A DNA stretch of 52,263 bases, filler included, from Dirinaria sp. TL-2023a (GCA_051941275.1; 3 parts of 3 records of this genome joined end to end with filler, not necessarily neighbours in it), one strand, 5' to 3'. Numbered from the whole stretch's first letter, positions 1,072-9,670 are shown. Notes: generated from the sequence alone by a model not told the origin. Numbers and translations are program-made.

Positions 1072-2736
1072 TCAATCCATGTTGGCTTTCCCACGCACTA
1101 CCGCCCGTATGCCTTTGGACCCAAGTCTGGGGTATGCAACATGGTAGTCATGTCGGAACTCAACATCAGAAAGGTCGGTTTGAAACAGGTCCATTTCATA
1201 TCTGGCAACCGCAGCAATAGCCAAGAACATTTCTGCATGGGCGAGGTTGATGCCGACGCAGTTTCGTCCCCCTTTATTGAATGCCATTTGGTACTTTTTT
1301 CTCTCAGCGCCTTCCTGTCCCATCCAGCGTTCAGGTTTGAAGGCCCAAGGATCTGGGAAGATCGTCTCATCGGTATGCACGGAAAGTGTAGTCATGCTCA
1401 CAGGGATGCCGGCGGGGATTGTATACTGTTGGTATTGGAGGTCTTCATCTGGAGCTATGCGGCAGACTCTCGCTGTCACGCCAAAGGATAGTCGATTCCC
1501 CTCAGCGATAACGCCGCTTAGATAAGGAAGCTGCTCGAGCTCTGTCCAGGACGCCGACTCAGGAACGTTGCGTAGCTCGGCACGAACACGTCGCATGATC
1601 TCCGGGTTAGCTAGCATGTGGAAATGGGCAACCGCGATCGATTTCGCTGTAGACTCGGTTCCTGCCATTACAAGTAAAGTACCTTCTTGCTCTAATCGGG
1701 TCAAACCTTTCTCAGACGGGGGTAAAGCTGGATTATCTCGAAGTTCGCGGAAGATGGAGCGTGTGTTTTCCACGGAAGGTTTGTCGTGGTTGAGGACATG
1801 TTGGATTTCTTCTCTGATTGCCTGCCACCTCTTAGTATTTTGACAGAGCTATGACTTTACTTTCAATTACCGTGGAAAACTGGACCATGTCAAGAACGCC
1901 TGGTGGCATTATATGTTTCCCCACAGTAAAGGGTAGCAAATCTAATGCGTCCACGATCCAAGGGAAATGCTGATTGAACTTTACACCCAGCAATAATTCC
2001 GACAAATGAAGTCGTAGACTCGAAGCACGTTGTTCGTCTTCGAGAAGATCATTGTCTTTCCCAAAGCTATACTGGGACACGACGCTTTTCTCAAATTAGG
2101 GTTTGGCAGCCTCTAGTCTCAAAGTCTAGACTCACTCATTTGCGAATGCAAAGTAAATATCCGATAGATTTACTGGGGTGCCATCCTTGACATGTCGCTC
2201 GAGTGAAGCACACAACAAGTCCACTTTCCCCGCAATCATGGATCCCAAAGCCAAGACGCTACGTTTGCTAAAGAATGGATTGAGTGCCTCTCTCCGCTTA
2301 CGATGCAACTCATGGTTCATTGAACCTCCTACAGACATCGGTACCTTTAGAGTTCTAGTTTGGAAAGAATACTTCTCGCGCCGGCGGAATGAAGGGGCGT
2401 AAATATCGTCAAGAAAGTCAACATCCTTGACATGAACCTCCCATGGTGATACACGTATGATGGGGCCTTCGTCGTAATGCGCTGTCAGTGTGGCAGATGG
2501 TACTGGATTATCGCCGGCCTACCGTATTCTTTATGTAATTCTTTGATCTTCCAGACGTACTGGCCAGGTTTTACAACATCGTAGTAGAACTCGTACCACG
2601 ATGAAAGAGCAGCCAGCCTTGGGCCGGGGATATGGGCTATGTTGCTGAAGAACAGTCTGCGGATGGCTTCAAGAACGACCCACGATAGAGAGAGAGCGCC
2701 GAAGACGAATAAGGACTGTGTCCAAGATGCCTGCAT
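1072..2736 (-). CDS. Cytochrome P450 monooxygenase (trichodiene-oxygenase/CYP58-like), multi-exon
   Basis: ORF pieces 2485-2760, 2132-2338, 1832-2080 and 1072-1773 join into one P450. It has an N-terminal TM anchor plus IPGP..WYEFYYD, I-helix AGTEST, ExxR (EGNR), PERW and the heme motif FNKGGRNCVG. ATG of MQASW is at 2736. Confidence 0.95.
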
Positions 2737-3388
2737 GATGGCGTGAGGTCCAGAAATCAATAAACAAAGTGTACAGGTAAAAATTTGGGTTGTTTGTCGT
2801 GGTAGTTCTTACATCTTGTCGATGTCTGCGTTAAGGTACAGACACAGTGTAAGATACCGTATTTAACGCTGAAAAAATATAGAAAACAGAAAGAAAAAAC
2901 CCCCCCCGAAAGGTGCGATAAGCAGACCTTGAAGGATGCAACAGGCAGATTTTCAGCCCCAATTTGCCGCCACTGCGGTCGAGGTCTGAAGCAGGCTAAA
3001 GCTCCGCCAGCGAACGATGGCTTGCAGTAGGCTGAATACGTAATCTGCAGTCAGCCCTTCTACTTGAAGAATTTCAAACTGCGTACTGGTGGCTTAGATA
3101 ATGGACTGCATTGAATGAACGGACCGATTAGCACACTTGGTCACCATTTTCATCCTGCGGCCTGCACGAACCCACAGCTCGTTCTAGGACTTTGACCAAT
3201 GGATCGGGCCGATCAGTCGGGAATGCGAGTAATGCTGCCTTTTGCAACTAAGAACATCACTAACTACGGGCAAGAGTACGTGCTACTAAGGCACAGGTAC
3301 GAGTACCAATCGCATTTCAATGATTGCTGCTGTGCAAGCAAGTAAAACCACCACACGGCGCCAATGACGTTCCTGCAAGCCCACTGAC

Positions 3389-4245
3389 TCAGAAGGGAAA
3401 TTCCAGACCATCGGTGCCCATGTCGCAATGTCCGTAGTGGTCATTGAGTGGGATCGGTGTTTCAGAGTCTCGATAGCATGCTGAATGTTGCGTAGCCCAG
3501 TCGCGAAGGGCTGCCCAGTTTTTGCACTTGCGATGTTGTCCGTCGCCGGTACTGTTACGACCCCATGAGTACAGCAGTGTATCTCCCGCAGTACACATCA
3601 CATATTGGCGAATGCTATCGAAGCAATGCATCGAATGGCCGAGCGGATAAGTCAAAGGTTGTCCCTGTTCCAATTCATAGAATGTCTTGCGGACAATGGT
3701 CTAGTCCTCGTCAATATCAAACTCAAATCAAGACCGTTTCTCCTACCAAGCAGTGAAGCTGATGATAAGCGTCAATGATATAAACGCTTTTGCTGGCATC
3801 GCGTGGTAAGCTTATGGATGGTGGAAGCTGCCTTTGTGCCGCCCATTGTTGCTCGACAGCCACAATTCCATGGGCTGGGACGACGGCAGCCCACGCTTCG
3901 TCAACTGCGGGTTTGTCACTGGAGTGTGGAGAACTGTAGTTTGACCACCAGTCATACGGTATCCAGAGCTCAGAAGCAATGTTGGAAGCTAGATGATGCA
4001 TTGGGTCAGACTCCAAATTCCCATAATGCCATTAATGGAGGCGCACCATAATGTCCAACCTGCTGCCCTACGTTCATATGGCTCCTTGCGAGGAGGAAAC
4101 CAAGAACGCACGTTGTACTGATTGAAAGTATCAGAGCAGCATCCTTAATGTGTGCCCGTAAGAGCTCCAAATAAGCAGTCACACAACTATCATGTCTTTT
4201 TTCTGACGAGCCTAGTAGACTATACGACGCTCTCGCAGGACGCAT
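3389..4245 (-). CDS. DUF3328/UstYa-family oxidase (copy A), 3 exons
   Basis: N-terminal single TM segment (AALILSISTTCVLGFLLA). Two HxxHC motifs: VYIIDAYHQLHCL and LGHSMHCFDSIRQYVMCTAGDTL. C-terminal GDGQHRKCKNW. GT-AG introns restore a continuous frame. Confidence 0.93.
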
Positions 4246-7307: not shown

Positions 7308-7505
7308 ATGCAGTCCACATATCTTTTCACTATCCTACTTGCTTTGGGCCACTTTGGTGCGGTGATGGCTGCCCCGGGTCAGTCGTCATCAGAAGATAAA
7401 CCTGCTTTGTGCTAACATTTCAGAAAAGCAGTCATTCCAGAGACTCCACGTTCCGTGGAGATCCCCAACGAGGACGGTTCAGTAGATGTAGCTGAGCTGT
7501 GGTGA
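7308..7505 (+). CDS. Small secreted peptide, candidate RiPP precursor: MQSTYLFTILLALGHFGAVMAAP(A)VIPETPRSVEIPNEDGSVDVAELW*
   Basis: Exon 1 (7308-7377) encodes a signal peptide ending in A-A-P. The intron has a GTCAGT donor at 7378, a GCTAAC branch site at 7411-7416 and in-frame AG acceptors ending at 7428, 7431 or 7440. Exon 2 ends at TGA 7503-7505. It lies between the two DUF3328 genes and is absent from the ORF track. Confidence 0.72.
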
Positions 7506-8863
7506 TCTTGAGCTCGTTCATTTGGTTTGTAACCCTGAGTAAGGCTCACGTAATGTTGCTGACATTTTCTGAAGCCTGGACCGAGTCCTGCCGAAATGCC
7601 CCAATGATCTGATCGAGTTCTGCTATGCTTGAGCCAACGTTGATGTCGGACACAGAGGGTGGAAATACATAGACGCCTTGAGAGTATTCTTACTAGACTA
7701 CCAGAGTCAATCTCTTACCCTGCCTGTTTGCTTTCACAAGTGTACTATATCTGCATCTGAGCACATAGCTGGATTCTGAGTTGATTGCGCAAATATCAGA
7801 TTTGAAATGGGCTGCTTGATTGCAACTTGACCACCCTAAAGCTATATTCTTGCCTTCGAAGATCCGCTAGCTGAAGCGAATGCACTCATGATCCCTGTGG
7901 TAAAAGGCGGTCATCGATAGAGCTCGAAAGAGTAAGAGTGTACCGAGCGACAAGGGGGGAGTCATTTATATCTTCTGGTCCGCAAGGCAGCAGGAGACAT
8001 GCATGAGGAATGTAGTTGAAGCAGACAGTATCTTGCGACATGTATTCTTCGATCAGCCTATACCCATCCCATCACAGCTCTTGTTCTTGGCAACGAAGAA
8101 GCTGGACTTGGCGCTAGAAAGGGGATGAAGACGCCAAGACGCCAATCGGGATTTCTCAATGGCGCTAACCCCCTCAGGGTGACAACCTGCAATGGAACCA
8201 AAACTCCTAAAGGAACGTCCAGCCCCCTCAGTTTGCTAGGTAGTACTCCTGATTGTGTGTGTCGAGGTACGGAGTATGGTACTCTGAATGCTCTGGTGGG
8301 GCGAATCAAAATTGCAAATCATCATAGCTAGGTCCGCATCGTCACCCTCTGCGCTTTAGTCTGATCGAGAAGGATGTGTTGACCGACAAGCGCTCCATTC
8401 GAGTGGATTCATCCTGTTGCCCGGAGCTTCGTCCCGTTGCGCCCGGAATCCTTCGGAGCTCAAGACCCAGTTTGGCTTACTTCGAAGGATTTGATCTTTT
8501 GCTGTGCCTACCTCCAGAAGGGAGAAAGTCTGTTTCAGCAGCTGGAGCTGACATTGTGTCAGACCGGCCTCGTGATGTCAATTCCTATGGCGAATTTTCC
8601 CTTTACAGCAGCACACCACACGATCCATACCTTGTCCCCCTTATAAACCCAGATCGGCCTCGGAAGGTCTGTGGATCCATACAGCTGAATCGTATTCCGG
8701 CGTAGCGTAGCTGTCATAAATACCGTTTATTACTTGCACGATACCAATATGCATGTCAGCTTCATCCTGTCTTCCCCATATCTTGCCATTCTCATGCGAG
8801 TATCATGAAAGTATGAACTTGCGAAGATAGCAGCATAACAACTTTCCCTTCACCGATTCCTGT

Positions 8864-9670
8864 ATGCTATCGACAGGTCGTAAAGAGTCGGGGGAGGAGG
8901 ACGACCGTAGCGAACTATTGCACACGTTAGAGAGGAATGCAAGAGCTCCGGAATCTCTACCAAGATACGGTCGCTGGGTACTTGCTTGTCTCATTATCAG
9001 TGTACTCCTTCTTTCAAATGTCGTTACTTGGGTGCAATTGTCAAAACTTAGACAGGATAAAGCAGCAAGGCCAAGCTTTGGTACTTCTTCACCACGTCTT
9101 CATAGAGTGTTTGCTAATAACGTCAGGTGATGCTCCGTTGGTGGACGAGTATTGGACGACATTCAGCACGTATACCAACTATAGCTCAGACGACGTAAGC
9201 ACTGCCAACAAAGCCTGGAACAAGTACACCATCAATGGATTTGTGGCCCTTCCACACGCCTGGGCTACAAATAAGCAATGGCCGAAAGCGCGGGACATGC
9301 CGGGCGATACCGACAAAGGCATATATGTTGTGGACGGCTTCCATCAACTACACTGCCTAGTAAAGCTCTGCCGGGGATCCATTACGTCTGCACGCTAATC
9401 GGTAATCTCTAGATGTCGATTCGTGACACGGTTGCTGAACTCTTGGAGGGTGGCGGTGTTGAGAACAGAACCCACACTCTGCACCATCTCAATCACTGTT
9501 ACGATGCTCTCCGCCAAGCGATTATATGCCGAGCGGATGATACGCCTCTATACGTACCTAAGCAAACATTCTTCGCTGGGGACGGGCAGCAGCGTCGTTG
9601 CAAGAGCTGGCAGAGTCTTGAAGATTGGGTGATCCGGCACACGGCTTGTTATGATCCTGTCCGCTGTTGA
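8864..9670 (+). CDS. DUF3328/UstYa-family oxidase (copy B), 3 exons
   Basis: TM segment WVLACLIISVLLLSNVVTWV. HxxHC motifs GIYVVDGFHQLHCL and HHLNHCYDALRQAIICRADDTPL. C-terminal GDGQQRRCKSW. Confidence 0.93.

Follow-up and report, generated by a model that had tools for sequence, protein, structure and literature searches.

Tyrosine is the residue cross-linked in the ustiloxins, phomopsins and asperipin-2a, and genome mining for fungal peptides made on ribosomes and modified after translation (RiPPs) of the UstYa type looks for precursors with repeated, Lys-Arg (KR)-flanked and usually Tyr-containing cores. Here we analyze a five-gene locus at positions 1072-9670 of a 52,263-nucleotide stretch of DNA from Dirinaria sp. 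TL-2023a (GCA_051941275.1; three parts of three records joined with filler), called the window below, in which two UstYa/DUF3328 oxidase genes, a cytochrome P450 gene and a gene for a seven-transmembrane (7TM) protein lie together with a small gene for a candidate single-core precursor peptide. We read this locus, with a probability of roughly 0.6, as a self-contained cluster of the dikaritin-like, UstYa/DUF3328 kind for a ribosomal peptide that is oxidatively modified and secreted.

The ustiloxin cluster of Aspergillus flavus and Ustilaginoidea virens (UstA; UstYa/UstYb; UstQ; UstC), described in part in PMC12048977, likewise has two UstYa paralogs and a P450 beside a secreted precursor gene, and processing likewise takes place in the secretory pathway. 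The window differs from it in having no tyrosinase, methyltransferase, flavin monooxygenase or transcription factor by Pfam; furthermore, the window precursor has one core, no KR, no Tyr and a Trp end, and a conserved 7TM gene is added. Asperipin-2a (AprA, AprY, a reductase and a transporter) represents a minimal cluster with DUF3328 cyclization and no tyrosinase, as described in PMC12048977, and AprY is reported to be copper- and O2-dependent in PMC12435403. The asperipin-2a precursor is a Tyr-rich KR repeat accompanied by one UstYa and no P450, whereas the window has two UstYa genes, a P450, a 7TM gene and a Tyr-free single core. Because it has neither repeated KR-flanked cores nor Tyr in its core, we do not assign the locus to the ustiloxin, phomopsin or asperipin groups.

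Two further sets of relatives bear on the comparison. According to PMC12435403, the DUF3328 protein CctR, a cyclochlorotine hydroxylase, forms a homodimer anchored in the membrane, its C-terminal domain facing the organelle lumen; each monomer holds two copper ions at HxxHC(x)nHxxHC, and the enzyme needs O2 and electrons. AprY, a cyclase, and ApnU, a halogenase, are said there to behave like it. CctR has the same family and layout as the window proteins: a tail at the N terminus, a single membrane helix, then a helical domain in the lumen with conserved luminal Cys residues; it acts on the product of a nonribosomal peptide synthetase (NRPS), whereas no NRPS is seen in the window or in the two related loci, L001 and L002, described below. 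In lichen-forming fungi, the DUF3328 Clans R1 and R2 have UstY homologs with a double HxxHC and, in PMC12048977, no identified precursor; Clan R2 has GNAT acetyltransferases, and neither clan as described there has a P450 plus a 7TM protein, so that the window differs from these descriptions in its accessory genes. That study (2025; 111 lichen-fungus genomes) did not find the precursors of its DUF3328 clusters and raises a single core as a possibility.

Window genes were called as stop-to-stop open reading frames (ORFs) and then searched exon by exon with Pfam (13 exon pieces). The locus contains the following features:

1072..2736, minus strand: cytochrome P450, 502 amino acids (aa); exons 1072-1821, 1871-2084, 2136-2466 and 2523-2736; frame open after splicing
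3389..4245, minus strand: UstYa/DUF3328 oxidase A (UstYa-A), 250 aa; exons 3389-3700, 3747-3988 and 4047-4245
5004..6561, plus strand: Fung_rhodopsin (PTH11-like) 7TM protein, ~402 aa; from Pfam PF20684 and RNA joints
7308..7377, plus strand: precursor peptide exon 1; 23 signal-peptide codons and base 1 of a split codon
7429..7505, plus strand: precursor peptide exon 2; 9-residue variable spacer, 16-residue core and stop at 7503-7505
8864..9670, plus strand: UstYa/DUF3328 oxidase B (UstYa-B), 235 aa; exons 8864-9080, 9127-9359 and 9413-9670

The precursor gene lies between the two UstYa genes of the window. Its N terminus has a hydrophobic core and small residues at -3 and -1 (...VMA then AP), read from hydropathy as a signal peptide, and its C-terminal 16 residues, VEIPNEDGSVDVAELW (7455-7502), which end in Trp, form the core. 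The intron between its two exons, 7378-7428, is in phase 1. The transcript runs from ~7222 to 7986, and the 48-codon ORF, the longest on the plus strand, begins at the first ATG. Domains of a tyrosinase, a transcription factor, a methyltransferase or a peptidase are not found in the 8.6-kb locus, where none of 20 intergenic ORFs (41-125 aa) matches Pfam at E <= 0.01.

Transcription was assessed with RNA from three runs of one sample in one study labelled lichen metagenome, each with 0.14-0.16 of sampled words. The contigs were aligned to window positions 1-12600; as assembled contigs, they show neither strand, ends nor level. Since they are 90-99 % alike to the window, their source is a close relative and not this strain. 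Each of the five genes is covered by the contigs, which lack its introns: three for the P450 gene (with CT..AC joints), two for UstYa-A (3700>3747 and 3988>4047), five for the 7TM gene and two within the UstYa-B coding region. In the peptide gene, a 51-nucleotide skip at 7375>7427 occurs in all three runs; provided that the last Pro codon, CCG in the window, is CCA in the relative, this skip agrees with a GT..AG intron at 7378-7428. All five genes are intact, and in a close relative they are transcribed and spliced. Contig depth is ~21-30 for the peptide and UstYa-B genes and ~4-10 for the other three, values from one sample that we do not use to rank expression.

The same contigs show several further features. 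A second joint, 7520>7576, lies in the 3' untranslated region of the relative's peptide transcript and has five unmatched letters. The UstYa-B transcript begins at or before ~8450 and has a joint in its 5' leader, 8516>8563, whose left end is GA rather than GT in the window. At both 7520-7576 and 8516-8563 the window strain may splice differently or not at all. At window position 9814, just past the 3' end of UstYa-B, contigs of all three runs run on for 146-255 letters unlike the window, and a rearrangement or an insertion that differs between the window strain and the relative may explain this divergence.

Domain searches agree with the layout. The UstYa family (PF11807, cut-off 25 bits) matches the last exon of A (3389-3700, minus strand) with 53.8 bits and the last exon of B (9413-9670, plus strand) with 48.9 bits, and middle pieces score 24.5 bits (3723-4031, minus strand) and 25.8 bits (8931-9398, plus strand). 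The copper-site motif HxxHC(x)nHxxHC is complete in both proteins (HQLHC and HSMHC in A, HQLHC and HLNHC in B), which are 34.5 % identical to each other and each have, by hydropathy, a single N-terminal hydrophobic 19-mer helix (residues 35-53 in A and 39-57 in B). For the P450, the last exon is recognized by PF00067 with E 6e-38 (piece 1072-1848, minus strand), and the spliced protein has the heme-binding motif FxxGxRxCxG as FNKGGRNCVG. The 7TM protein matches Fung_rhodopsin (PF20684) with 62.1 bits against a cut-off of 27 (piece 5449-5799, plus strand); six of its helices pass the hydropathy threshold, the seventh is weaker, and Pfam finds no CFEM domain in it. RNA contig joints support its introns at 5175-5225, 5418-5463, 5779-5828, 5897-5999 and 6053-6108 (plus strand), and a sixth, 6142-6187, is placed from the reading frame alone.

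These results bear out what the first-pass annotation had read from this DNA: a P450, two DUF3328 proteins, a 7TM protein and a hidden 48-aa peptide gene within 8.6 kb, all five of which Pfam and RNA place where it had put them. Its assignment of both oxidases to DUF3328 is upheld by the PF11807 scores above the cut-off, its reading of two intact HxxHC motifs in each is correct, and the peptide gene is real by its RNA-seen splicing, its first ATG and its longest plus-strand ORF. The ORF and Pfam scans likewise agree with its remark that the locus has no multi-repeat KR precursor, tyrosinase or transcription factor.

The A-type oxidases have further conserved features. Database orthologs of UstYa-A, including Bisporella sp. 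P0028, are 50-69 % identical to it; P0028, a full-length ortholog, scores 85.7 bits against PF11807, and a search with it finds relatives in Usnea florida and Lepraria finkii. Cys residues 183, 206, 222 and 239 are invariant across 19 A-type sequences and match the disulfide pattern given for CctR in PMC12435403. An AlphaFold2 monomer model of P0028, made with 19 aligned sequences, is poor (mean predicted local distance difference test, pLDDT, 47; predicted template modeling score, pTM, 0.28), the family being reported as dimeric in PMC12435403, and a search of PDB sequences with P0028 gives no meaningful match (best E 0.29). Past the end of the Pfam match, the A-type C terminus has a third H-x-G-H-C string, HYGHC at window 3425-3439 (minus strand), seen also at L001:8543 and L002:2696. 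The Cys of this string, invariant in the 19 sequences, may be a disulfide Cys as in CctR and not a metal ligand.

Metagenome contigs were scanned with the last P450 exon, giving three loci (L001, L002 and L003), and these were then searched by local tblastn with the spliced window proteins. L001 and L002, both on metagenomic fungal contigs, each have the full five-gene set, with order and orientation differing among these two loci and the window:

L001: UstYa-B, minus; 7TM, plus; peptide, minus; UstYa-A, plus; P450, plus
L002: extra UstYa, minus; UstYa-A, plus; peptide, minus; UstYa-B, plus; 7TM, minus; P450, plus
Window, flipped: UstYa-B, minus; peptide, minus; 7TM, minus; UstYa-A, plus; P450, plus

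Identity to the window in L001 and L002, respectively, is 64 % and 57 % for the P450, 62 % and 57-58 % for UstYa-A, 57-68 % and 45-49 % for UstYa-B, and 41-59 % and 27-32 % for the 7TM protein, whose L002 copy also matches Pfam. The flanks are unrelated by Pfam: the P450 of L001 is followed by Med11 and by a sorting nexin (Vps5/PX), BTB and chromo-domain ORFs flank L002, and the window is flanked by a secreted protein with no Pfam match and an OTT_1508 deaminase-domain protein. The five genes therefore stay together in L001 and L002 despite rearrangement and differing flanks, the shared synteny that a real cluster of the kind proposed in the first-pass annotation would show. L003, the most distant P450 locus (49 % identity), has no UstYa in 15.4 kb. 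In addition, a 688-aa Cudoniella acicularis gene model (P0034, G7Y89_g9065) matches both PF11807 and PF00067 and is 59 % identical to window UstYa-A and 60 % to the window P450; from its sequence, this model looks like an annotation error that joined two neighboring genes and not a natural fusion.

The peptide gene is conserved within this set. In L001 it has 23 signal-peptide codons, a phase-1 intron right after the Pro codon and a second exon, and in the window, L001 and L002 alike the phase-1 intron stands at the same position, after the Pro codon behind the predicted signal cleavage site. The window and L001 cores share 11 of 16 residues, the other five being conservative; by codon, five are identical, six differ synonymously and five have nonsynonymous (conservative) changes. 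The 7-9 residues between signal peptide and core are unalike in the two. The alignment score of the two second exons, 74, is reached by none of 20,000 shuffles.

In L002, the small gene between the UstYa-A and UstYa-B orthologs, each within ~1 kb of it, encodes three full 14-residue units, separated by KR and each ending ...EGW, the last of which is the protein end. This gene is a classic Kex2-type KR-repeat precursor, the kind whose absence from the window the first-pass annotation had noted. Several KR-flanked core repeats are present in L002, in contrast to the window and L001, which have one core and no KR. We treat the single core and the KR repeat as versions of one gene because they occupy the same place in orthologous clusters, have the same exon-intron build and end in Trp. 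The description of the window architecture as unlike that of characterized clusters accordingly stands for the window itself and falls short for the cluster type, of which a repeat version exists.

The L002 repeat belongs to a wider family. Searching by words with the exon from L002 finds two relatives, one of them an 'uncharacterized protein' of Aspergillus alliaceus, and a family profile of three sequences, searched against 1.84e9 representative proteins, gives 23 matches at E <= 1e-3, nine at E <= 1e-10 and three at E <= 1e-30. We inspected 21 of these 23, leaving out two long proteins (444 and 614 aa). Eleven have a signal peptide and two to four KR-separated units of the type DG-T-Q-I-[AG]-E-G-W, and two more have shorter ...GW units, making 13 proteins with a signal peptide and KR-separated units ending GW; three others are KR-repeat peptides with other aromatic-ended units, and the remaining five are unrelated repeats. 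The L002 counterpart and these 13 proteins are thus like the Kex2-processed repeat proteins (KEPs) of PMC7329392 in having a signal peptide and KR-separated units, whereas the window and L001 peptides are single-unit with no KR, so that a repeat-based search cannot find them.

Named members of the ...EGW family are those of Botrytis paeoniae, Stromatinia cepivora, Tricladium (Hymenoscyphus) varicosporioides and Talaromyces amestolkiae, and all are 'hypothetical' bar one; the repeat family occurs in Aspergillus as well. The 69-aa T. amestolkiae protein (P0013) carries the UniRef name 'Pectate lyase', an apparent misnomer. A KR repeat with ...AEGW units (P0021) is filed under a transcriptome of the fern Psilotum nudum and may be a fungal contaminant. 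Three weak matches, P0015, P0011 and P0017, are secreted KR repeats with aromatic ends (...IADGF, ...PPHW and ...YHSW), and the P0015 unit resembles ...VDVAELW of the window; going by their sequences, the three may be sister precursor types. None of the six family precursors scanned has a Pfam family, and among the papers searched no fungal RiPP paper has the ...EGW unit strings: 15 papers contain one of four strings, and the 10 listed are, judged by title and abstract, on unrelated subjects. Five strings (units and single-core C termini) are also absent from three supplement files of PMC7329392, whose tables give accessions and not sequences. For both the Tricladium precursor and a UstYa-A relative from Tricladium, the contig reported has 753,591 bases, a weak point for an association of the repeat with DUF3328.

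From the genes of the window, the following pathway can be proposed. The prepropeptide would enter the endoplasmic reticulum, where the signal peptide would be removed, and C-H bonds of the core would be the target of both membrane-anchored UstYa oxidases in the secretory-pathway lumen; if these resemble CctR and AprY, they are O2-dependent dimers with a binuclear copper site. The modification can be guessed to be a hydroxylation, or a cross-link that ties the terminal Trp to an aliphatic side chain, that of the Ile/Val kept at four residues from the end. The P450 would oxidize the product further, proteases would trim the N-terminal spacer, and the product would be secreted. In the repeat version of L002, Kex2 would release the units. 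The window core is the C terminus, and therefore no Kex2 or Kex1 cut is required after it. Kex2 can cut after Pro-Arg, and a Pro-Arg lies one residue ahead of the window core; Arg-Lys stands there in L001. The 7TM protein, as a conserved cluster member, may serve in export, self-protection or sensing. A bolder and rather improbable extension is that the locus represents a new RiPP class in which copper UstYa enzymes cross-link a C-terminal Trp in place of a Tyr, with the PTH11-class 7TM protein as the dedicated sensor or immunity partner in a ligand-plus-receptor cassette, and that single-core precursors of this sort are those 'missing' in many lichen DUF3328 clusters.

Several results weigh against reading the locus as a RiPP cluster of this kind. 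The modified product is predicted from the genes alone, and no product is known. Tyr is missing from the cores of the window, L001 and L002 and from those of the 13 family proteins. In L001, single-base changes alter copper-site residues in both oxidases, giving RSMHC for the window HSMHC in UstYa-A (8294-8596, plus strand) and HQMHR for the window HQLHC in UstYa-B (3313-3345, minus strand); these Arg changes may reflect a decaying copy or errors in the metagenomic contig. Window positions 1-1100 have no match to the three loci by blastn or tblastx. The gene at 11.3-12.6 kb is covered by RNA as well, and these one-sample contigs show expression, not co-regulation. In addition, what joins the single core to the KR repeats is position and gene structure, their sequence similarity not being significant. 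By eye, cores and units share D-G-[ST], one or two residues, and an [IV]-A-E-x-W end, a resemblance that is not statistically secure: a unit profile (32 distinct units, window and L001 left out) run on 4660 six-frame ORFs lists neither second exon, even with E as high as 100, and a broader one ranks the window exon 61 and the L001 exon 16 among the same 4660. Shuffles are suggestive only, with 38 of 2000 (window) and 133 of 2000 (L001) against 12 family proteins, and 402 of 5000 (window) and 160 of 5000 (L001) against L002.

These points leave room for other explanations. The UstYa oxidases and the P450 might tailor a small molecule, nonribosomal or otherwise, with a core gene located elsewhere, in the style of cyclochlorotine or astin, with the peptide as an unrelated neighbor. 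DUF3328 enzymes are not limited to RiPP pathways (PMC12048977; PMC12435403); one UstYa-A database relative is labelled 'Cyclochlorotine biosynthesis protein R' by its source, and the window stops 1 kb past the P450 gene, so the left side of the contig lies outside the data. The first-pass annotation had itself raised an NRPS beyond that edge. By the ORF list, no ORF of NRPS or polyketide synthase size occurs anywhere in the window, nor is there one in L001 (15.3 kb) or L002 (20.4 kb); in L001 the housekeeping genes Med11 and Vps5/PX come directly after the P450, and the peptide gene sits inside the cluster in the window, L001 and L002 despite rearrangement, all of which makes this explanation unlikely. 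A little less likely still is that the peptide is a secreted signal, KEP- or pheromone-like, that is cut and not oxidized and is handled by the 7TM protein, while the UstYa and P450 enzymes serve elsewhere. Its KR-repeat relatives do look like ordinary KEPs: TGO22268.1, the ...EGW family member of B. paeoniae, is KEP type 0 in Table S2 of PMC7329392, where no DUF3328 gene is marked within 15 genes of it, a point against a fixed association of the family with DUF3328, and the 7TM gene is kept in the window, L001 and L002. Such a role for the peptide sits poorly with the L002 precursor lying between two nearby UstYa genes, with both UstYa paralogs being kept as orthologs, and with the finding that DUF3328 genes are enriched beside KEP genes and needed for cyclization in known cases (PMC7329392).

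Finally, the five genes could be chance neighbors with no shared function. UstYa, P450 and PTH11-like families are all large in filamentous fungi. Against chance stands the recurrence of the set in L001 and L002: its orthologs lie together at three loci, the window included, with differing flanks and order, and in part at a fourth, and this explanation strikes us as very improbable. The kept gene set and the precursor evidence together support the proposal, already made in the first-pass annotation, of a compact DUF3328-type RiPP cluster with a nonrepetitive precursor.

Two genes beyond UstYa-B complete the picture of the window. A transcribed two-exon gene at 11284-12466 (plus strand) encodes an Ala/Ser/Thr-rich protein with a signal-like N terminus and no Pfam match; this protein is absent from L001 and L002 and therefore marks the cluster border. 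It is followed at 13169-15346 (plus strand) by an ORF of 725 aa in which Pfam recognizes an OTT_1508-like deaminase domain (PF14441, E 9e-18). Past 13 kb, the long ORFs resemble housekeeping genes when read by eye and presumably encode a histidine kinase, an EF-2/Snu114-like GTPase, a thiolase and a WD40 protein.

For the lichen-forming fungi, where PMC12048977 had asked after the precursors of DUF3328 clusters, the window locus provides a concrete, transcribed candidate for a single-core precursor. From it a rule for searches can also be drawn: look between UstYa genes for a small gene that has an exon for a signal peptide, an intron in phase 1 and, at the C terminus, a conserved core whose last residue is Trp. 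The five-gene set is small enough for whole-cluster expression. Furthermore, the locus points to an unnamed precursor family with ...EGW units in Helotiales and Eurotiales, and suggests a chemistry unlike that of the Tyr ethers.

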